A stretch of 64,000 bases of DNA from Sulfurovaceae bacterium (GTDB lineage: Bacteria; Campylobacterota; Campylobacteria; Campylobacterales; Sulfurovaceae), in NCBI GenBank assembly GCA_028714675.1, contig JAQTLV010000005.1, positions 3,475 through 67,474 of the forward strand. The letters run 5' to 3'. Position 1 is the first letter of the stretch, and the number at the start of each line of letters is the position of its first letter. Below the pieces are notes generated by a model, which saw only the letters and a list, made by a program, of their open reading frames with translations, searched no databases and was not told the origin of the DNA. Position numbers and translations under genes: made by a program. Shown here piece by piece: positions 7,674-60,142 of the stretch.

Positions 7674-8141
7674 TTAAACAGCTGGCAAAATATGTATTGG
7701 TTTCTCATTTTCTTCTAACCTAATCATTTTAAGATTCTTTGGCAATAAAAAAGAGTTATTTTGCTCTAGCTCTAATTTTTTTATAATTATATTCTCTTTT
7801 TCTTTGATAAAGTATAGATTACCAAGTGCTTTTATGGGTAAATTGTTATTGCACTCGAAACCAAGAGTTCCTTTGCATTTTATATTTTTTGTTATTTCTA
7901 TAGTTTTTACTATAATATATGCTAACTTAGTGCCCATGTGGCTACCTGGTCCACTAGTATAAATAATGGAATTTATCTCATACTTTTCTATGAGTGGTAC
8001 CAACAATTCCAATAGGGAATCTGATACTTTTTCATTACTCTCAAATGTTTCTATCAACTCTTCATTCTCATACAGACCAACCAAAAATGGTGAAGCCAAT
8101 GATATGATTAGAATGTCATGCTGTTGCGAAGCTTTTTTCAA
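7674..8141 (-). CDS. tsaB: tRNA t6A-modification protein TsaB-like (short form)
   Basis: 155-aa ORF. SGPGSHMGTKLAYIIVKTIE resembles the GPGSFTG.RIG motif of TsaB/YeaZ, but the protein is shorter than the classical form. Confidence 0.55.
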   Translation of the reverse strand: MKKASQQHDILIISLASPFLVGLYENEELIETFESNEKVSDSLLELLVPLIEKYEINSIIYTSGPGSHMGTKLAYIIVKTIEITKNIKCKGTLGFECNNNLPIKALGNLYFIKEKENIIIKKLELEQNNSFLLPKNLKMIRLEENEKPIHILPAV

Positions 8142-9006
8142 ACTCTCTACTTTCCAATGCTTCGACTGATACTATTTCATAACTATCACTATGTTCTTTT
8201 AATTTTGCGATTAGCTGTGAATTTAACTTGTGGCTTCCAGCGAATGACTCATACGCCCCAAGGACCGAACATCCTCCAACCATCATATCTCCCATAGCAT
8301 CAAGTATCTTGTGTCTTACAAATTCATTATCAAATCTAAGACCTTCAGGATTTAATATCTTATGATCATCAAGTCCAATGGCATTTTGTAGATTTGCACC
8401 AAGAGCTAAATTTTTACTTTGTAGATATTGTATATCTTTTGCGAAACCAAAAGTTCTAGCTCTAGCAATTTGCTCAACAAAGTTTTTAGTGCTTAGTGTA
8501 AAAGAGTATGATTGTTCGGAAATTGCTGGATGATCAAAAAATATTTTAAAATCAAATGTTGCTTTTTCGCTTGGCTTAAAACGAACGAATTTATCTCCAT
8601 CTTTTACCTCTATAGGCTTTAAAATTCTTAGGATTTTCTTTGGAGTATCTTGTGTAAGTATGCCTGCTTCATCAAGCAGTAAACAAAATGATATTGCAGA
8701 TCCATCCATAATAGGCATTTCATTGCCATCGACCACAACTCTTAGATTATCTATCCCATAAGCATAGATAGCTGATAAAAAATGTTCTATCGTTGATATA
8801 AAACCTTTTTCATTTCCTATAACTGTTGCCATCTGAGTATCAACAACACTTGATGGTGCAAGAGGTATAGTCAAACCTAAATCTTCTCTATAAAAAACTA
8901 TACCACTATCTGGTTCCAATGGTTCAAGTCTTAGCTTGATAGGTTCACCCTTGTGTAATCCTATACCAACAGCTTCAACTGGTTTTTTGATAGTTCTTTG
9001 TTGCAT
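8116..9006 (-). CDS. lpxC: UDP-3-O-acyl-N-acetylglucosamine deacetylase
   Basis: MQQRTIKKPVEAVGIGLHKGEPIKLRLEP aligns with the canonical LpxC N-terminus. I prefer the ATG at 9006 to the upstream TTG at 9021 used in the ORF track. Confidence 0.93.
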   Translation of the reverse strand: MQQRTIKKPVEAVGIGLHKGEPIKLRLEPLEPDSGIVFYREDLGLTIPLAPSSVVDTQMATVIGNEKGFISTIEHFLSAIYAYGIDNLRVVVDGNEMPIMDGSAISFCLLLDEAGILTQDTPKKILRILKPIEVKDGDKFVRFKPSEKATFDFKIFFDHPAISEQSYSFTLSTKNFVEQIARARTFGFAKDIQYLQSKNLALGANLQNAIGLDDHKILNPEGLRFDNEFVRHKILDAMGDMMVGGCSVLGAYESFAGSHKLNSQLIAKLKEHSDSYEIVSVEALESREFEKSFATA

Positions 9007-9107
9007 TCTACCCACTTTCAAATTTTGTATATTATACTATATAAAATTATATTTTTTTTTAATTAAATAAATTTAATATGTATATAAATAATATGTTAAA
9101 ATAAATT

Positions 9108-10094
9108 ATGAGAAAAATATTAATATATACATTGGTACTATTATTTGCAACTGGGTGCATAGAGATAGTACCTCAAGAAGTACATCAAGATATAAAAATA
9201 TCAAACAATGGTGATGTTTCTGTAACCTATGAAGGAACATTTATGGATCTTTATGATGTTTTGGTAGCAATGGAAAATGAAAAAAAAGGTTCTGAAAAGC
9301 TGCCAAGTATTAGCGAGTATCAAAAATCGACTATAAAAATGTTAAAACAAAGCAAATTTAATAAAAAAGCATACAATATAGCTCCACATAAATATTATGC
9401 AAAATGGCAAGAAGATGCAAATATACATCATCCTACGCCTTATCTAGATAATAAACCATATCTTTTACATTATGATAGTGATTTAAAAATACCAAAACCG
9501 ATAACACTAAATAGTATGCAAAATTTATCAGATAGTGCATTTTCTTTTACATATGATGAGATGAAAGATTTTAAAGAATCTGATGTGAAAAAAGACTCTA
9601 ATGATTGGATGACACCTTTGATAAAAAAATATGCATCAGGCTACAAGGCAAAAGTAAGTATAGAGATAGATAGCGATTTGGTACTAAAATCAAATGCAAC
9701 TACTATGACAAAACTTTCAAATGGCATGAGTCTATATGAGTGGCCTGATATAAAATTTGAAGATAAAGATTCAAAGGTAGATTTTGTATTTAGCTTTGAT
9801 TCTATGGATAGAGAGAGATATAAATTAGCAAGTGCACCAACAGGGACATCATGTAAATCTCTTATAGGAACTGATTGTAAATGTGGTCCATTTTCACTCT
9901 ATAGTTACGATGGAAGTCCTCTTTCTTATAGAGGATATATTATCAAAAGTAATAATATTACAAAGAAAGGTTGTAGTGATGAAAAAGGAAATGTGCCATC
10001 AATAACATCAAAGGTTACTGGTATGTGTACCATAACTATGTTAACAGAAAAAGAATCTTCTAAGTTATGTGGCAACAAAAAACTCAAACATTAG
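9108..10094 (+). CDS. hypothetical lipoprotein with Cys-rich C-terminus
   Basis: 328-aa ORF with a signal peptide and lipobox (LLFATGC). The C-terminal ~90 aa contain 7 Cys. I recognise no family. Confidence 0.6.
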   Translation: MRKILIYTLVLLFATGCIEIVPQEVHQDIKISNNGDVSVTYEGTFMDLYDVLVAMENEKKGSEKLPSISEYQKSTIKMLKQSKFNKKAYNIAPHKYYAKWQEDANIHHPTPYLDNKPYLLHYDSDLKIPKPITLNSMQNLSDSAFSFTYDEMKDFKESDVKKDSNDWMTPLIKKYASGYKAKVSIEIDSDLVLKSNATTMTKLSNGMSLYEWPDIKFEDKDSKVDFVFSFDSMDRERYKLASAPTGTSCKSLIGTDCKCGPFSLYSYDGSPLSYRGYIIKSNNITKKGCSDEKGNVPSITSKVTGMCTITMLTEKESSKLCGNKKLKH

Positions 10095-10115
10095 TTTATG
10101 AGTTTTTTATTTTCT

Positions 10116-10937
10116 TCAAGCTTCTATCTTCATAGATAAATCTATCCAATTTGCCTGATGAATGATGCTTCCAGTAGAAATAGCATCAACACCACATTTG
10201 GCAATATCGCCTATAGTGTCAAGCGTAACATTTCCGCTTGCTTCTAGCAACACATGTGGATATTTACTATTCCTAAAGCTAACTACTTCTTTCATTTGAT
10301 CTATTGTCATATTATCGCACATAACTATATCTGCTCCTACTTCCATAGCCCTTTTAGCAAAATCAACACTCTCAGATTCTATCTCTATTGCAGTAGTAAA
10401 AGGTATATGTTTTCTAGCTTCTTTTATATATTGTGACAAATCATCTATGGTTGCCAAATGAGTATCTTTAAGCATAAGTGCATCATCAAGTCCCATACGA
10501 TGATTTATCCCGCCACCACATCTAACAGCATACTTTTCAAAAATACGAAGCATGGGACGAGTTTTACGAGTATCGAGTAATTTAACTTTTGTCCCATATA
10601 GTGCTTTTGCATATTTGGAAGTCAAAGTAGCAATAGAGCTTGCATGTAAAATTATATTTAAAATTGATCTCTCTAAAGCTAAAATAGTTTTACTCTCACC
10701 TCTGATAAACAAAAGTTTTTCGCCAACAAAAAATTCTTTACCATCTTCTGCAAGCCACTCTATTGTTATAGGATATAATTCAGCAAAAACATCAACATAT
10801 TCTCTACCAGCAAAAACACCATTGCTTTTTGCCAATATATAACCTTCTACATTTTTAGACTCTCCAAAAAAACCAAACAAATCGCCTCTGCCTATATCTT
10901 CAGCTACTACTGATCTAATAAATGACTCTTTATGCAT
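10116..10937 (-). CDS. nadC: nicotinate-nucleotide pyrophosphorylase (quinolinate phosphoribosyltransferase)
   Basis: 273-aa ORF with LLDTRKTRP...EKYAVRCGGGINHRMGLDDALMLKDTH, typical of NadC. It is adjacent to nadA. Confidence 0.92.
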   Translation of the reverse strand: MHKESFIRSVVAEDIGRGDLFGFFGESKNVEGYILAKSNGVFAGREYVDVFAELYPITIEWLAEDGKEFFVGEKLLFIRGESKTILALERSILNIILHASSIATLTSKYAKALYGTKVKLLDTRKTRPMLRIFEKYAVRCGGGINHRMGLDDALMLKDTHLATIDDLSQYIKEARKHIPFTTAIEIESESVDFAKRAMEVGADIVMCDNMTIDQMKEVVSFRNSKYPHVLLEASGNVTLDTIGDIAKCGVDAISTGSIIHQANWIDLSMKIEA

Positions 10938-10946
10938 CTTGCTACC

Positions 10947-11936
10947 TCACACAATTTCTAGCATTCTGTCGAGTGCTAATTTGGCATACTTTATAGTATG
11001 CTCATCTACAAATATTTCATTAATTGGCTTGCCATCTTCTATAGATTTGAGAGTATTGTACAAATCTTCCAAAGTAGTTTCGTTCATGGTTGGACACTCT
11101 GGTTTGGTAGATGAAAGCACATAAGTGTTTTTATCTCTCATGCGATTTACTAAATTATACTCTGTTCCAACTGCTACTTTTTGATTTATATCCAGTTCGT
11201 TTACATATTTTATAAGTTGCGATGTAGAACCAATAAAATCCGCCTTTGCAACAACCGATGGATCACACTCTGGGTGTACTGCTATTTTTATATCTGGATA
11301 TTTAGAACGATAAAAATCTATATCCTTTGTAGTGAATAATTGATGAACCGAACAAAAGCCATTATAACAAATAACATCAGCCTCTCTAGGATCACATTCT
11401 CCTATTCCTATGACACAGGATTTAAGTCCCATTTGATTTGCAAAATTTTGCCCCAAACAACGATCTGGAACAAATAATATTTTCTTACCGCTCTCTAGTC
11501 CCTTTTGTATAATTTTATATGCATTTGCACTTGTACAAACTATACCGCCCATCTCACCAACTTTTGCTTTGACACTTGCATCGGAATTAATATATGTGAT
11601 AGGCAAAATATCTTCTTTTTTTATCCCATGCTTTTGCATATATTCTACATTTTCATCAAAATATGTTCCATCTATCATTTTTGCCATTGCACAACATGCA
11701 ATACGCGGCATAAGAACTCTTTTATTTGGTGATATAACTTTTACACTTTGCCCCATAAACCCAACACCGCAAAACACAATCCACTCATTTGAATCATTTT
11801 GACATTTTCTAGCAAGCTCAAGTGAGTCGCCAACAATATCTGCTATGTCAAATACTTCATCCCTTTGATAATAATGTGCAACAACCGTTACATTTAGCTC
11901 TTTTTTAAGCCTATTGATTTCGGTTTTATAATCCAT
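10947..11936 (-). CDS. nadA: quinolinate synthase A
   Basis: 329-aa ORF with VVAHYYQ and the conserved Cys residues and length of NadA. It forms a nadA-nadC pair. Confidence 0.92.
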   Translation of the reverse strand: MDYKTEINRLKKELNVTVVAHYYQRDEVFDIADIVGDSLELARKCQNDSNEWIVFCGVGFMGQSVKVISPNKRVLMPRIACCAMAKMIDGTYFDENVEYMQKHGIKKEDILPITYINSDASVKAKVGEMGGIVCTSANAYKIIQKGLESGKKILFVPDRCLGQNFANQMGLKSCVIGIGECDPREADVICYNGFCSVHQLFTTKDIDFYRSKYPDIKIAVHPECDPSVVAKADFIGSTSQLIKYVNELDINQKVAVGTEYNLVNRMRDKNTYVLSSTKPECPTMNETTLEDLYNTLKSIEDGKPINEIFVDEHTIKYAKLALDRMLEIV

Positions 11937-55393: not shown

Positions 55394-55807
55394 TCATTTT
55401 ATCCGATACCAAGTCTGTTTTCTGCCTATACTAAATGCGCCCCAGCCTATATAGCCTTTGACTATCATTTTATCACCATCTTCTATTAATGTTACTTTAT
55501 ATTCTTTATCATCTTTTGGATCAGTAATCGTTCCACCGCCATATGTTTTAGAGTCTTCTTTTTTTACATTTTTAATTACAATAACACCTACTAAACTTTT
55601 ATTTTTGTATTTACCTTCACAAACACTACAGACTTTTTCTCCAGTCAATACCTTTCGTATAGTTCCACTATAAACTCCAGCATTATTGGTAATAGCAACA
55701 AGTGATTTCTCTTTACCACTTTTTTCATCTACTGTTTTCCAAATTCCTACTATATCCCCAAAAAGCAAACTACACCCAACAAAAAGCAAAAGGGTCATTT
55801 TTTTCAT
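55394..55807 (-). CDS. DUF2147 domain periplasmic protein
   Basis: 137-aa ORF with a signal peptide. GIWKTVDEKSGKEKS...DPKDDKEYKVTL...VKGY.G....GRKQTWYRI matches the DUF2147 pattern. Confidence 0.78.
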   Translation of the reverse strand: MKKMTLLLFVGCSLLFGDIVGIWKTVDEKSGKEKSLVAITNNAGVYSGTIRKVLTGEKVCSVCEGKYKNKSLVGVIVIKNVKKEDSKTYGGGTITDPKDDKEYKVTLIEDGDKMIVKGYIGWGAFSIGRKQTWYRIK

Positions 55808-55834: not shown

Positions 55835-55872
55835 ATTATAGCAGTTTTTTTTGTTTTTATTATAGAGTTTTT
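55835..55872. repeat. left boundary direct repeat (contains the TGcTATAAT promoter of the DUF2147 gene on the minus strand)
   Basis: ATTATAGCAGTTTTTTTTGTTTTTATTATAGAGTTTTT. The 16-nt core ATTATAGCAGTTTTTT and TAGAGTTTTT are shared with 58141-58177. Confidence 0.55.
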
Positions 55873-56025
55873 ACAACAGCCACACGCATCCATTTCATTT
55901 TGAGTCTTTGAGGTATCAAATGTGCCTGTTAACTTACCGCTGTTTGCTTGAACCTAGTCTGTTGTGGTGTTGGTGCGAAAAAATAGTTTACTCATTTTAT
56001 TTGTAGGATTTTACAGTTATCATTG

Positions 56026-56097
56026 TTACCTAACCCCTATGTCTGATTCGCCCAAATACTTTTTCAGTTCTTCGTTAAGTTTATTAATATCTGCCAT
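56026..56097 (-). pseudogene. 23-codon ORF, possible stub of a third cassette
   Basis: MADINKLNEELKKYLGESDIGVR. It is preceded by GAGGTAAAAATGG, the same RBS/start context as the 369-aa gene, 24 nt after the attC-like element. Confidence 0.25.
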
Positions 56098-56121
56098 TTT
56101 TACCTCATTTGAACATCTGTT

Positions 56122-56190
56122 ACATAACGTTTGAGTTGAGAAATATTTGAGCCGCAGGGTCAAATATTTCTCTCCAATGGTTTGTTATGT
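56122..56190 (-). repeat. attC-like imperfect palindrome 2
   Basis: In the gene sense it reads ACATAAC-AAACCATTGGA-GAGAAATATTTGA-CCCTGCGGC-TCAAATATTTCTC-AACTCAAAC-GTTATGT. It has a 13-bp perfect inner stem and 7-bp complementary ends containing AAC and GTT. It starts 2 nt after the stop codon of the 369-aa gene. Confidence 0.6.
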
Positions 56191-56192
56191 GT

Positions 56193-57302
56193 TTAATAGT
56201 CTGCATTTTCAATCATATCTCTATAACTTTGTTCGGCATGAATAAAGTCTTGAAAGTTCTCAATATCATCAAGATATGAAGACACTCTATTAAAAAAATC
56301 ATCTGAAAATGATAACGACAATCCACTTTCTGCATATTTCCATGCAAATTGAGAAGATTCATACTCAAGCCAATTATCTATCTTATCAAATTGCTCGCAC
56401 AACTCTTCATATTTAATATCATCCGTAGGTACAAAATTAAAGTGTGGACTATCTTTAAATTTTGATAGGTTTGCAGGTATCATACCAGCATTATCAAGTT
56501 GAAAATAAAATGGTTCACCATTTTTACTGAACATACCATGAGAAAATGTATTTCTATATTTTTCTTTTATAATATTGATTTCATCGTAAAATAGTTTATT
56601 TTCTTGTATATTTAATGGAAATATGATCTTAAATTTTTCAGAAAAATCTTTTTTATAAAAATCATAAATATTAATTGTTCTATCTGTATTAAAAAATAAA
56701 CAATAAGCTAAAAAATGTTCAAAACGGCTAAAATAAGCTTCTATCATGGAAAAAGTATTATAAAATCCAGTATTGTTTTTTGTCATCATAGTATTTAAAA
56801 AGCTTGACATATCATCTATATTAAAATCAGGTTCTCTTTTGCCATAAATTTTATTTGCTTCTTCTTTGAAATGATAATACATATTTGACAACATATTGAA
56901 ATGATTTGAAATTGTTAAATTACCATATTGCATTTGTTCTTTTGCATAATCTTGTAATATTTTTTTCTCGATATAATTGACAGCTTTATTGATTTTCTTA
57001 ATTATATTTTCATAGTTATCTTTATTCTCAAGATAAAATCTTAATCCAAACTTTTCTAAAGCAACTGCACATTTTGTATTATCATAAGAAAAATACAAAA
57101 TCCAATGCATTTTATCGTATCTGTATCCTAATTTATATTGCATTACTTTGTTTAACAAAAAAAATATAAGCTGTGGAATAGGAAGAGATTCTCTTTCTAC
57201 TTTTACTCTAGTTTCATTTTGATAAATATTTGATTCATCACTATGTGCAAATCCATTTAAAATTTTTTTTATAGCATTAATATGGGTTTCTGATATTTCC
57301 AT
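56193..57302 (-). CDS. hypothetical 369-aa protein with RNxxxH (HEPN-like) motif
   Basis: The ATG at 57302 is preceded by GAAGAGGTAAAA. YRNTFSHG (R250-H255) is encoded at 56538-56555. I recognise no other family. The first 50 codons of the track ORF overlap the upstream gene and the attC-like element and are discounted. Confidence 0.7.
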   Translation of the reverse strand: MEISETHINAIKKILNGFAHSDESNIYQNETRVKVERESLPIPQLIFFLLNKVMQYKLGYRYDKMHWILYFSYDNTKCAVALEKFGLRFYLENKDNYENIIKKINKAVNYIEKKILQDYAKEQMQYGNLTISNHFNMLSNMYYHFKEEANKIYGKREPDFNIDDMSSFLNTMMTKNNTGFYNTFSMIEAYFSRFEHFLAYCLFFNTDRTINIYDFYKKDFSEKFKIIFPLNIQENKLFYDEINIIKEKYRNTFSHGMFSKNGEPFYFQLDNAGMIPANLSKFKDSPHFNFVPTDDIKYEELCEQFDKIDNWLEYESSQFAWKYAESGLSLSFSDDFFNRVSSYLDDIENFQDFIHAEQSYRDMIENADY

Positions 57303-57314
57303 TTTTACCTCTTC

Positions 57315-57388
57315 ACATAACGTTTGAAATGACCAATAAAAAAAACCCGTGGGCGGCTTTTTGATTGGTCTCCTTTGGTTTGCTATAC
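57315..57388 (-). repeat. attC-like imperfect palindrome 1
   Basis: On the plus strand it reads ACATAACGTTTGAaat-GACCAAT-(26-nt partly self-pairing loop)-ATTGGTC-TCCTTTGGTTTGCTATAC. The flanks are conserved with element 2 (13 of 13 on the left, about 15 of 20 on the right). It overlaps the TAG stop of the DUF4145 gene by 1 nt. Confidence 0.55.
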
Positions 57389-58011
57389 TAGGTGTCTCTC
57401 GTAATGATTGCATCTTTTTTGTCGTCAGGTAAAGTATCATATAGAGCGGCAATTTCTTTCGGTTGTGTAATCATTACGTGGGCAATTAGATTGATTAATT
57501 CAAAAAGTTTATGTGCTATTTCTTGATTGTCTTTTAAATCAATTTGTCCTGGATGTACCGCATCATTTCCTACTACTCTTACAATGTCTAAAGCTTTTTG
57601 AATTGTAGGTGGCAGTCCTTTCTGCACTAAACTTGCAATATCGCTATTGATATTTTTTCCACTTTCTCCCAGTTGCTTACACAATTTTTGTATTGCTAAC
57701 CTTAATAAGGCAGCAGCTCCTCTTGGAGACTTATTAACTATGGTGGCAGCTTCTGAATAGTCATTAATGATATCTTGTTCCAAATCAGTATTCGGCGGCT
57801 GAATGCCAGTGGTTTCAGGATATATCATCTTTTCATCTAGCCAAATTGAAAAGTTATTACAATGAGTGCAGAAAGCAATTTTTTCCCTTGGCATATTGCT
57901 ATAGCCTCCACGATAGTAAAATGCATCCGTCCAAATCTGGTGAGAAAATGCATTACAGTATGGGCAATTAAAGCTAGTTTTCTTGAATGCTGGCGGAACT
58001 ATTTTATGCAT
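57388..58011 (-). CDS. Zn-ribbon + DUF4145 domain protein
   Basis: 207 aa from the ATG at 58011, with an N-terminal CPYC-x28-CTHC zinc ribbon. The C-terminal PRGAAALLRLAIQKL...DIVRVVGNDAVHPG matches my memory of the DUF4145 signature (R..GN.A.H). Confidence 0.7.
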   Translation of the reverse strand: MHKIVPPAFKKTSFNCPYCNAFSHQIWTDAFYYRGGYSNMPREKIAFCTHCNNFSIWLDEKMIYPETTGIQPPNTDLEQDIINDYSEAATIVNKSPRGAAALLRLAIQKLCKQLGESGKNINSDIASLVQKGLPPTIQKALDIVRVVGNDAVHPGQIDLKDNQEIAHKLFELINLIAHVMITQPKEIAALYDTLPDDKKDAIITRDT

Positions 58012-58140
58012 ATCTTTTCTTTGAAATTTTAGGGTCAGGTGATGAAAATAAACCACTACTCATAACTTTTCCTTGCTTTTGGACTCACTCCAAGATATCT
58101 TGCTATATCTGCTTGTTTATATCTATCATTTTATGCTTTT

Positions 58141-58177
58141 ATTATAGCAGTTTTTTGGGATTTTGTAGAGTTTTTTT
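58141..58177. repeat. right boundary direct repeat (second copy of the TGcTATAAT box, facing into the island)
   Basis: ATTATAGCAGTTTTTTGGGATTTTGTAGAGTTTTTTT. Confidence 0.55.
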
Positions 58178-58264
58178 AAAAAGATAAAAGTGGAAGTTCA
58201 ACGCCTGAACCGTAAAAATAGAGTGTGGTGAAACTACCCCAAGGGGGGGGATAGTTGAGTAGTT

Positions 58265-60142
58265 TTATTCTACCTCTGCGTCGATGACATCGTCATCTTT
58301 TGGAGTGCTTGAGCCTTCAGCAGCAGCACCGCCTTGCTCTTTTGCATAAAGTGCTTCAGCTAATTTATGGCTTTTTTCTGTTAAAGTTTTTACTTTAGCT
58401 TCTATTTCCTCTTTTGTTGCATTGTCATTTTTAAGTGTAGTTTCCAAATCACTTATAGCCTCTTCTATGTTTGCTTTTTCTGTTGCATCAAAATTTTCAC
58501 CAAGTTCACCCATAGATTTTCTAGTTTGATGAATCAAAGCATCTGCTTGATTTTTTATTTCAACCAAAGCTTTTCTTTGCTCATCTTCTGCTTTATGTGC
58601 TTCAGCATCTGCTACCATTTTTGATATTTCTTCATCGCTAAGTCCAGACGAACCAGTGATTTTAATCTCTTGTGATTTACCAGTACCTTTGTCAAGGGCT
58701 GATACTGTCAAGATTCCATTTGCATCTATATCAAATGTAACTTCGATTTGAGGAACTCCTCTAGGAGCTGCTGGAATATCTCTAAGTTCAAACATACCAA
58801 GAGATTTATTGTCTTTTGCAAATTCTCTTTCACCTTGAAGTACATGGATGCTAACTGCTGGTTGATTATCTTCTGCAGTTGAAAATACTTGTGACTTTTT
58901 AGCAGGTATAGTTGTACCTTTTTCTATAATCTTAGTAGTAACTCCACCTAGAGTTTCAATCCCAAGACTAAGTGGTGTAACATCAAGAAGCAATACATCT
59001 TTAACATCACCAGCTAGTACTCCACCTTGAATTGCAGCACCAAGCGCAACAACTTCATCTGGATTTACTGATTTATTGAGATCTTTACCAAAGAATTTTT
59101 TAACTTCTTCTTGAACAAGTGGTACACGAGTTGATCCTCCAACCATTACCACTTCGTTAATATCGCCTTTTTTAACACCTGCATCTTTTAAAACGCTTTC
59201 TATCGTTTTGATTGTATTTGCAACCAAATCAGAAATCAATGATTCAAATTTTGCTCTTGTAACTTTCATAACAAGGTGTTTTGGACCACTTGCATCTGCT
59301 GTGATAAACGGTAAGTTTATCTCTGTTTCAGTTGCACTAGAGAGCTCTTTTTTTGCATTTTCTGCTGCATCTTTTAATCTTTGAAGAGCCATTACATCGC
59401 TTTTTATGTCAACTCCAGTTTCATTTTTAAATTCGCTTGCAACAAAGTCAATAAGTCTATTGTCAAAGTCATCACCACCCAAAAATGCATCACCACCTGT
59501 TGCCATAACCTCTACTACATTATCGCCTGTCTCCAAGGTTGTAACATCAAATGTACCACCACCCAAATCATAAACAACGATTTGCTCTGCATTTTTCTTA
59601 TCCAATCCATAAGAAAGTGCGGCTGATGTTGGTTCATTTATAATACGAAGAACATTAAGACCTGCTATTGTTCCAGCCTCTTTGGTTGCTTTTCTTTGTG
59701 CATCATTAAAATAAGCAGGAACAGTAATAACTGCATCTGTTATCTTCTCTCCAAGATAAGCTTCTGCATCCTCTTTTAGTTTCATTAAAACTTTTGCAGA
59801 AATCTCTTGAGGAGTATAAGTTTTACCAGCAACCTCGATAGCACAAGCTCCATTTCTATCAATAATATGATATGGAAGTCTCGTTTTTGCCTCTTTTGCT
59901 TTTGGCTCATCACACATTAGACCCATAATTCTTTTTATAGAGTATATTGTTTTTTCAGGATTTGTAACTGCTTGTCTTTTTGCAGTATCTCCAACTAAAA
60001 TTTCACCTTTATCTGTAAAAGCAACAACTGATGGAGTTGTATTTTTACCTTCTTTATTTACAATTATTTTTGCTTCACCATGGTCAAATATTGCCATAGC
60101 TGAATTTGTAGTACCTAAGTCTATTCCTAATACTTTTGCCAT
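58265..60142 (-). CDS. dnaK: molecular chaperone DnaK (Hsp70)
   Basis: 625-aa ORF with [17 protein letters not shown] and the other canonical Hsp70 signatures. Confidence 0.98.

Follow-up and report, generated by a model that had tools for sequence, protein, structure and literature searches.

Beside dnaK in the genome of a Sulfurovaceae bacterium (Campylobacterota; assembly GCA_028714675.1, contig JAQTLV010000005.1, positions 3,475 to 67,474 of the forward strand) two short genes follow each other closely, and the question raised by this locus is whether they make up a single phage-defence system or are two separate genes that happen to be neighbours. The whole stretch of 64,000 nucleotides (nt) that was analysed is referred to here as the window, and coordinates are positions in it unless another locus is named. 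Both genes lie on the minus strand: gene 1 (57388..58011) encodes a protein of 207 amino acids (aa) and gene 2 (56193..57302) one of 369 aa, and the spacer between these co-directional genes is 85 nt long (57303-57387). A first-pass annotation had proposed them as a novel two-gene defence pair. The positions and sizes that it gave for the two open reading frames (ORFs), their shared direction, the spacer and the dnaK neighbourhood were all found as described; the reading of them as a pair found no support. Our analysis makes it likely that this 2.3-kb block carries two functionally independent single-gene modules, one of them RAZR and the other a member of an unnamed HEPN-like family.

Relatives of the two genes in other genomes

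Co-occurrence was assessed on 33 loci with gene-2 relatives, representing about 20 distinct contexts, and on five loci with RAZR relatives (loci from other genomes are designated by L numbers). A tblastn search with RAZR detected no homologue within approximately 8 kb of the gene-2 relatives in any of the 33 (L001-L031 and two plasmid loci), none of the five RAZR loci carries gene 2, and in the precomputed Pfam tables for six gene-2 contexts no DUF4145 neighbour appears. The first-pass annotation had itself named co-occurrence elsewhere as a check on its proposal, and in this sample the two families do not co-occur. Among the RAZR relatives at 72-79% identity, the one in L091 stands alone between housekeeping genes, in L093 (Sulfurimonas sp. 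HSL3-7) it is followed by an ApeA_NTD1+HEPN_Apea gene, and in L094 it is located between DpnII-MboI/methyltransferase/DUF1848 genes and a ParE toxin-antitoxin pair. In the window an attC-like site lies between genes 1 and 2, and the breakpoints of DNA homology fall there. Being separate attC-bounded cassettes, the two genes would therefore be independent units, which is the opposite of an obligate two-gene system, and their pairing appears to be accidental. Against this it may be said that the adjacent genes may act in synergy in this particular strain, with which the comparative data are compatible.

Judged by its sequence, gene 1 is the already characterised single-gene defence protein RAZR (PD-T7-4), and hence not new. 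The PADLOC model of PD-T7-4 matches it with E=2.1e-90 over residues 1-207 (profile positions 1-208 of 211), and Pfam DUF4145 with E=5.9e-16 over residues 86-164. Its sole match among PDB sequences is 9y9c (E=1.8e-57, 45% identity over 204 columns, residues 4-206 against 4-207), which we take to be the RAZR-Gp77 cryo-electron microscopy complex because the matched sequence forms 24 chains and has R146 and H154. The zinc-ribbon cysteines C16, C19, C48 and C51 (CxxC-x28-CxxC; 57859..57966, minus strand) are invariant in 22 homologues, and so are the predicted RNase active-site residues R145 and H153 (RVVGNDAVH; 57553..57579, minus strand), which align with R146 and H154 of the E. coli RAZR. The translation start is the ATG at 58011, where the PD-T7-4 profile and the homologues begin as well, and a 222-aa version with a GTG start was rejected on these grounds. 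At E≤1e-30 this very large family comprises at least 7,857 proteins, and a 100% identical database entry is annotated 'DUF4145 domain-containing protein'. The first-pass annotation had read gene 1 as a CxxC-x28-CxxC ribbon joined to a DUF4145 domain, with R145 and H153 as catalytic residues and with DUF4145 grouped with HEPN. This reading stands in all its parts: the cysteines and the domain are in place, the two residues align with experimentally essential ones, and DUF4145 is a member of the HEPN superfamily (PMC3710099). The novelty claimed for the pair does not stand, gene 1 being the known RAZR, which defends when expressed alone.

PD-T7-4 came from a functional selection in E. coli (Vassallo 2022, PMC9519451), and was renamed RAZR, for ring-activated zinc-finger RNase, by Zhang (2026, Nature, PMC13017515). 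It was studied as a single protein, active alone in cells as well as with purified components, and consists of an N-terminal Cys4 zinc finger and a divergent HEPN RNase, the DUF4145 domain; the substitutions R146A and H154A in the E. coli protein abolish both defence and RNA cleavage (PMC13017515). RAZR builds a 24-mer around phage rings, formed by a recombinase-like protein or by the portal, and then cuts single-stranded RNA (mRNA, tRNA and rRNA) non-specifically, which blocks translation and results in abortive infection (PMC13017515). By homology, the zinc-finger domain of the gene-1 protein would recognise large ring-shaped phage proteins such as the portal or a recombinase ring, and the protein would assemble around these rings into a 24-mer. 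The DUF4145/HEPN domain, with R145 and H153, would then cleave single-stranded RNA non-specifically, so that translation would halt and the infection would abort. For either protein of the block, activity in the Sulfurovaceae host is something that we infer.

The gene-2 family and its probable activity

The gene-2 protein starts with an alpha/beta domain (about 93 aa), after which comes a helical domain with an RNxxxH motif. No model of Pfam, NCBIfam, PHROG or PADLOC matches it, in keeping with the first-pass annotation, which had recognised no overall family; it belongs to an uncharacterised family, probably a new addition to the many defence or toxin genes that encode a single HEPN-type protein. 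Its start is the ATG at 57302, with which the 369-aa homologues beginning MEISE or MTISE agree, and a 419-aa version from an upstream TTG was rejected in view of these homologous starts. A word-indexed search for relatives returned 17 clusters, and an exhaustive profile search of 1.84 billion representatives returned 1,032 representatives (clusters at 50% identity) at E≤1e-3, 417 of them at E≤1e-30. The members are nearly all full-length, at about 380 aa, and the representative of one cluster (P0001) is 88% identical to gene 2; a Sulfurovaceae member of this cluster is recorded as 'hypothetical protein'. The hosts include Campylobacterota, Polaromonas, three Marinomonas species, Wohlfahrtiimonas, Acinetobacter and Thiococcus, and further Verrucomicrobiota, Chloroflexota, Syntrophobacter, Parcubacteria and Gracilibacillus. 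Relatives on four plasmids are annotated 'hypothetical protein' every time.

Conservation was measured on 120 diverse members with 21-88% identity to the query. K64, G86, Y142, E195, H255 and G256 are invariant, R250 and N251 are each conserved at 97% and H255 at 100%, and F191, S192, H196, K84, W67, N133 and R146 reach at least 90% together with R250 and N251. The HEPN-type Rx4H motif R250-N251-T-F-S-H255 (56538..56555, minus strand) is part of KYRNTFSHG, residues 248-256; the first-pass annotation had placed it exactly, and its strong conservation in the 120 members bears out the importance given to it there. E195, in FSRFEH (56718..56720, minus strand), is acidic and does not vary; it lies in the long helix 162-205 and is a candidate for the upstream acidic residue of a HEPN active site (compare PMC3710099). 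The AlphaFold2 model has a mean confidence (predicted local distance difference test, pLDDT) of 82.6 and a predicted template modelling score (pTM) of 0.73. In it the alpha/beta domain of about 93 residues is followed by the helical domain, in which helix 233-252 ends at R250 and H255 lies in the subsequent loop, with a beta-hairpin after it; E195 is in the long helix before the motif helix, and short helices are inserted between the two.

HEPN domains are described as having a conserved Rx4-6H motif in which N, D or H, a polar residue, follows the R, the motif being at the end of core helix 3 and the start of the loop to helix 4, an acidic residue in helix 2 and common inserts between helices 2 and 3 (PMC3710099). 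Gene 2 has Rx4H with the polar N251 after R250. As to placement, R250 is at a helix end and H255 in the loop, in a model where this loop has a pLDDT below 50 and the helix numbering was assigned by us. The protein fits the published description because of the polar N after the R, the motif at the helix end and in the loop, the upstream acidic residue and the inter-helix insert. Sub-threshold profile matches point the same way. The Pfam families matched by more than one member include Csx1_HEPN (5 of the 120, best E=0.0064), HEPN_Swt1 (two) and Csm6_HEPN (two), and the PADLOC models include CARF_HEPN_TM (seven members) and Csx1/Csm6 (five, with a best E=2.3e-5 in one member). Of the families that two or more members match below threshold, HEPN accounts for three out of five in Pfam and for the majority of the models in PADLOC.

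A number of results weigh against this assignment. In a scan of the family consensus against Pfam and PADLOC the HEPN matches cover only about 17-50 residues around the motif; being motif-sized, they therefore restate the motif and add no independent evidence. Foldseek searches of the PDB with the whole model and with residues 94-369 gave nothing at E≤0.001, the best HEPN structure being HepT 6m6u (E 3.7-5.3), which ranks with numerous helical bundles of other kinds. Since remote all-helical folds are poorly served by Foldseek, this null result is no firm exclusion of HEPN. Profile searches of PDB sequences with gene-2 profiles of 16 and of 120 sequences found no match. By hhalign the family aligns with the RAZR/DUF4145 family at a probability of 0.5%, and comparison with single ApeA, AbiV, Swt1 and DUF5677 sequences gave no match, single sequences having little power in this procedure. 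The modelled confidence of the motif loop is low, as given above, and the upstream acidic residue departs from the Ex3[K/R] pattern that is usual. The four-helix HEPN core which the first-pass annotation had expected was not recovered by either structure or profile search.

The rival explanation that survives best is that gene 2 is not a HEPN RNase, and that RNxxxH, E195 and H196 serve in some other helical enzyme or binding protein, defensive or not. It draws on the lack of any significant structural or profile match to a HEPN, on the motif-sized extent of the hidden Markov model matches, and on the conserved or invariant residues that go beyond a minimal HEPN site (K64, G86, Y142 and H196). 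The composition of the motif, its helix-end position, the upstream acidic residue and the inter-helix insert nevertheless fit the HEPN description, and HEPN families are the most frequent among the repeated sub-threshold matches. We regard this alternative as unlikely. Of the single hypotheses for gene 2 we prefer a HEPN-like RNase, to which we give roughly even odds. For the N-terminal domain, the profilin-like and LAMTOR-like Foldseek matches were weak and non-significant. An RnlA/LsoA-type toxin or a PD-(D/E)xK nuclease found no support in Pfam or Foldseek, and the latter is also disfavoured by the conserved K64, K84 and G86, which do not form its motif.

To judge from motif, predicted topology and genomic association only, gene 2 is most likely a stand-alone HEPN-like metal-independent RNase acting as a toxin or abortive-infection protein. 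In this model R250-N251-x3-H255 and E195 of the helical domain would form the active site, which dimerisation probably completes. The N-terminal alpha/beta domain, with its conserved K64, W67, K84 and G86, would respond to a trigger or keep the RNase inactive. The dimerised RNase would then act on infection, and growth arrest would result.

The genomic association is with islands, prophages and cassette arrays. Relatives of gene 2 are found in an island with an MmeI restriction-modification system, Fic and DEAD+T5orf172 genes, after an RHH-ParE pair in a cassette-like array, beside KAP-NTPase+HNH in an Aeromonas-type prophage, after DUF1156+DUF499, between DUF5677 and a 453-aa unknown protein, and between hrpB and Phd-ParE. 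Phd-YoeB pairs also occur among the neighbours, and in a metagenome-assembled genome (MAG) of Chloroflexota an AbiV-type HEPN protein is encoded directly upstream. In three Marinomonas species (L020, L022 and L023, about 7900-10300) the homologue is located between pgi and a convergent SoFic-type Fic gene (PADLOC E=8.8e-45), and in a locus of Verrucomicrobiota (L021, 6968-9017) it overlaps the PADLOC candidate PDC-S13 (Bro-N-like, E=1.8e-117) by 11 nt. The defence flavour which the first-pass annotation had attributed to the locus is in this sense retained, gene 1 being RAZR and the gene-2 relatives standing often beside defence or toxin-antitoxin genes. Matches to GajA, AriA and PtuA in an aggregated PADLOC scan of 107 neighbours are probably generic ABC/AAA ATPases and were left uncounted.

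In two Parcubacteria MAGs (L029, 6040-7892; L030, 7186-9038) the gene-2 homologue begins 2 nt after the gene for a 234-aa protein of unknown family, which suggests that the two form an operon. The neighbours in Parcubacteria and in Verrucomicrobiota differ, and the partners of gene-2 homologues therefore vary by lineage. On repABC plasmids of Sinorhizobium and Rhizobium (L088 and L089) a distant homologue (27-29% identity, 403 aa) lies near the replication genes, directly after a protein of the 'RHE_PE00001 family' (DUF1612 + HTH_13).

Several points count against a role of gene 2 in defence, which is drawn from genomic association only and is weakly grounded. No relatives were found in phage, IMG/VR and E. 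coli collections, the family is not in PADLOC, and the gene has no obvious defence neighbour in L019, L024, L025 and L028. The next rival explanation sees in gene 2 a selfish toxin or addiction gene, or some other gene without anti-phage function, which hitch-hikes in arrays and islands, its defence-like neighbourhood reflecting nothing more than shared mobility. It would account for the frequent position beside type II toxin-antitoxin pairs (L002, L013, L017, L088), for relatives on plasmids next to replication and partition genes and for the occurrence of disrupted copies, which make up two of the 15 genome copies (L020, from M. hwangdonensis, and L031). Across the gene-2 contexts examined, however, there is no conserved small partner gene that could be an antitoxin, and many of the neighbours are bona fide defence genes and not toxin-antitoxin pairs, so that we consider this explanation quite improbable.

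Read as an RNase-based toxin or abortive-infection protein, the gene-2 family, which is sizeable and unannotated and has an invariant HEPN-like signature, is a reasonable candidate for a single-gene abortive-infection system. A more far-reaching proposal, which we put forward tentatively, is that gene 2 and its relatives make up a family of single-protein immunity genes that is both new and widespread, with about 1,000 clusters (50% identity) distributed from Campylobacterota to Parcubacteria, Chloroflexota and Bacillota. This family would join an undescribed N-terminal sensor to a very divergent HEPN-type RNase and would be spread as an attC cassette in Campylobacterota.

The attC-like cassettes and the block beside dnaK

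Directly 3' of each gene there is an attC-like imperfect palindrome of 73-78 nt with the form ACATAAC-AAAyC-...-13/14-bp stem-loop-...-AAAC-GTTATGT. Site 1, after gene 1 (57312..57389, minus strand; covariance-model score 68.9 bits), has the inner stem GAGACCAATCAAAAA/TTTTTTATTGGTC and the end AAACGTTATGT, and its DNA is about 80-83% identical to sites in the Sulfurimonas array L093. Site 2, after gene 2 (56119..56191, minus strand; 82.2 bits), runs from ACATAAC through a 13-bp stem to AAACGTTATGT and is 97% identical to sites flanking the RAZR gene in L094. When the folding of the DNA was compared with that of shuffled sequences, site 2 gave z = -5.4 and -6.4 on the two strands (-5.4 to -7.4 together with the related L010 site); the fold of site 1 is weaker, with z = -3.5 and -2.6, and its outer stem is degenerate. 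An R'-like box, GTTATGA, upstream of gene 1 (58060..58066, minus strand) is a possible left boundary of the first cassette, and (A)AAnGTTATG has only three matches in the block, at 58061-58070, 57316-57325 and 56123-56132.

A covariance model built from four copies of the site found seven further copies outside its training set, namely one in L010, after the 453-aa gene, and four in L093 and two in L094, which flank the RAZR genes; in the 64-kb window it found no site beyond sites 1 and 2. Across 11 distinct sites in five loci (12 aligned matches) 89% of the cells are paired, against 33-46% with the partners slid, and 28 cells are changed on both sides, a value that none of 500 shuffles reached. 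Co-oriented cassettes form arrays in L093 (four sites in 2 kb), L094 (2-3 sites) and L010 (2-3 sites). DNA homology of the gene-2 module to L001, L010, L013 and L017 sets in at the R' box or shortly behind it (57305-57340) and stops in or just before site 2 (56166-56192). That of the gene-1 module to L093 extends from 58011 to 57318, the break being at 57318-57320, at the R' box. The idea of the first-pass annotation that each gene is packaged in its own attC-like cassette is upheld by the site after each gene, by the covariation and by the breaks of homology at the sites.

The weakest of the rival explanations, by which genes 1 and 2 are one novel two-component defence or toxin-antitoxin-like system whose HEPN-like proteins cooperate or regulate each other, can appeal to the adjacency and shared direction of the genes with their 85-nt spacer, to the presence of just one clear promoter-like site, which precedes gene 1, to the R...H motifs in both proteins and to Sulfurimonas sp. 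HSL3-7, where the RAZR homologue likewise precedes a HEPN protein (of the ApeA type), but it is very improbable, given that the partner is absent from the 33 and the five loci, that each gene has its own attC-like site at which homology to other genomes breaks, that RAZR works as a single protein (PMC13017515) and that the second HEPN gene in L093 is of a different family and fits a clustering of independent cassettes, not a fixed pair.

To all appearance the block is a short integron-like cassette cluster, and 'CALIN-like' (from clusters of attC sites lacking integron integrases) seems the appropriate label. As an integron the cluster is incomplete, in that no tyrosine-recombinase box motif was found in ORFs of at least 150 aa in the window or in L001-L031, in a search by regular expression only. 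In0 and CALIN elements have been reported by IntegronFinder in Sulfurimonas autotrophica (PMC10295459), and integron cassettes are reported to be enriched in single-gene defence systems, with PD-T7-4 among the most frequent of the defence systems that they carry (bioRxiv 10.1101/2024.07.02.601686). In Sulfurovaceae, Sulfurimonas and Arcobacter-type genomes, homogeneous attC-like arrays appear to shuttle RAZR, ApeA-type HEPN genes, toxin-antitoxin pairs and the gene-2 family, and they would extend the picture of integrons as defence biobanks to Campylobacterota.

Among the related arrays, L093 (4740-6709; Sulfurimonas sp. HSL3-7, CP147919) and L094 (3850-6705) consist of short co-oriented genes separated by the same attC-like repeat. 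In L010 (7242-8603) the 453-aa cassette protein, which has no Pfam or PADLOC match, is encoded between two attC-like sites beside the gene-2 homologue, and DUF5677 and DUF5710 cassettes flank it. In L001/L018 just the 5' half of an attC-like site is left 3' of the gene-2 homologue (9112-9131, plus strand), and 2.1 kb away there is a complete but oppositely oriented site, behind a 147-aa gene (11267-11339, minus strand), with seven small minus-strand ORFs between the two; this arrangement may reflect an inversion or an insertion at the attC site.

Downstream of site 2 there is what looks like a truncated third cassette (55873..56118, minus strand). It has a 23-codon ORF (56026-56097, MADINKLNEELKKYLGESDIGVR) behind a GAGGTAAAAATGG start context, which is the same as that of gene 2. 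There is no closing attC, and the approximately 150 nt after the ORF have no homologue in any fetched locus.

The block as a whole is set between grpE-dnaK, upstream of both genes, and a 137-aa gene downstream (55394-55807). The dnaK gene (58265-60142) is the upstream neighbour of gene 1, the distance from its stop codon to the start of gene 1 being 253 nt. The G+C content is 36.5% in gene 1, 24.5% in gene 2 and 31.6% in the window, and neither module adjoins dnaK in any other locus examined; the low G+C of gene 2 and the absence of dnaK adjacency elsewhere lend indirect support to the view that the block is an insertion. A metagenome scan with the 137-aa gene, aimed at an empty dnaK site, gave as its one close match L032 (98%), which breaks off where the contig ends. 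A promoter-like site with an extended -10 (TCTACA-17-TGnTATAAT; 58141..58169, minus strand) lies upstream of gene 1 and is a consensus match only (10/12 + TG). The whole 2.3-kb block is bracketed by a direct repeat that resembles a promoter and has an extended -10 (AAAAACTCTAyAA...AAAACTGCTATAAT; repeat families D3 and D5), its left copy being ahead of gene 1 (58129-58164) and its right copy ahead of the 137-aa gene (55835..55872, minus strand). The copies are 81-88% identical and may have arisen by duplication of a target or a promoter, or may simply be AT-rich promoters that resemble each other. The dnaK stop codon is followed immediately, at 58235-58262, by a hairpin that includes a C8 run (ACTATCCCCCCCCTTGGGGTAGT), presumably the dnaK terminator, in which the homopolymer tract might be variable in length.

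Comparison with known systems

The block resembles integron cassettes, CALIN elements and sedentary chromosomal integrons (bioRxiv 10.1101/2024.07.02.601686) in its short co-oriented ORFs, each with a 3' palindrome of 73-78 nt. The sites themselves resemble integron attC in their AAC/GTT core boxes and in a conserved structure with a variable central stem. Their length falls within the range of about 57-141 nt given for attC palindromes, which have R''(..AAC)/R'(GTT..) boxes and unpaired spacers. Near-identical repeats within the clade and the presence of PD-T7-4, a known frequent cassette, add to the likeness. In contrast to integrons, no intI (searched by regular expression), attI or cassette promoter Pc was identified here and there are two complete sites only, and the 5' box of site 1 is degenerate.

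The closest parallels to gene 2 are the single-protein HEPN defence genes such as AbiV, AbiD/F, ApeA, DS-11 of DefensePredictor and 'Esos' of the V. cholerae integron. Gene 2 differs from them in having no significant match in sequence or structure, Esos and the DS systems having been compared by description only, and in its N-terminal alpha/beta domain, which is without a recognised relative; Esos, an integron cassette of V. cholerae, has only a HEPN-like domain. It shares with these systems the stand-alone organisation at about 370 aa, the R-N-x3-H in a helical domain combined with a variable or novel N-terminal domain, and the occurrence in defence islands, prophages and attC cassettes.

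Gene 1 is like RAZR of E. coli UMB1727 (PDB 9y9c) in length, in the combination of a Cys4 ribbon with DUF4145/HEPN and in 45% identity from end to end; the catalytic R and H are conserved, and both are single genes in a cassette or island context. The differences are in the host, which belongs to the Sulfurovaceae of the Campylobacterota, and in the zinc finger, the most divergent part of the protein. The zinc finger sets the trigger specificity of RAZR, and the phage trigger of the Sulfurovaceae protein may therefore differ from that of its E. coli counterpart.

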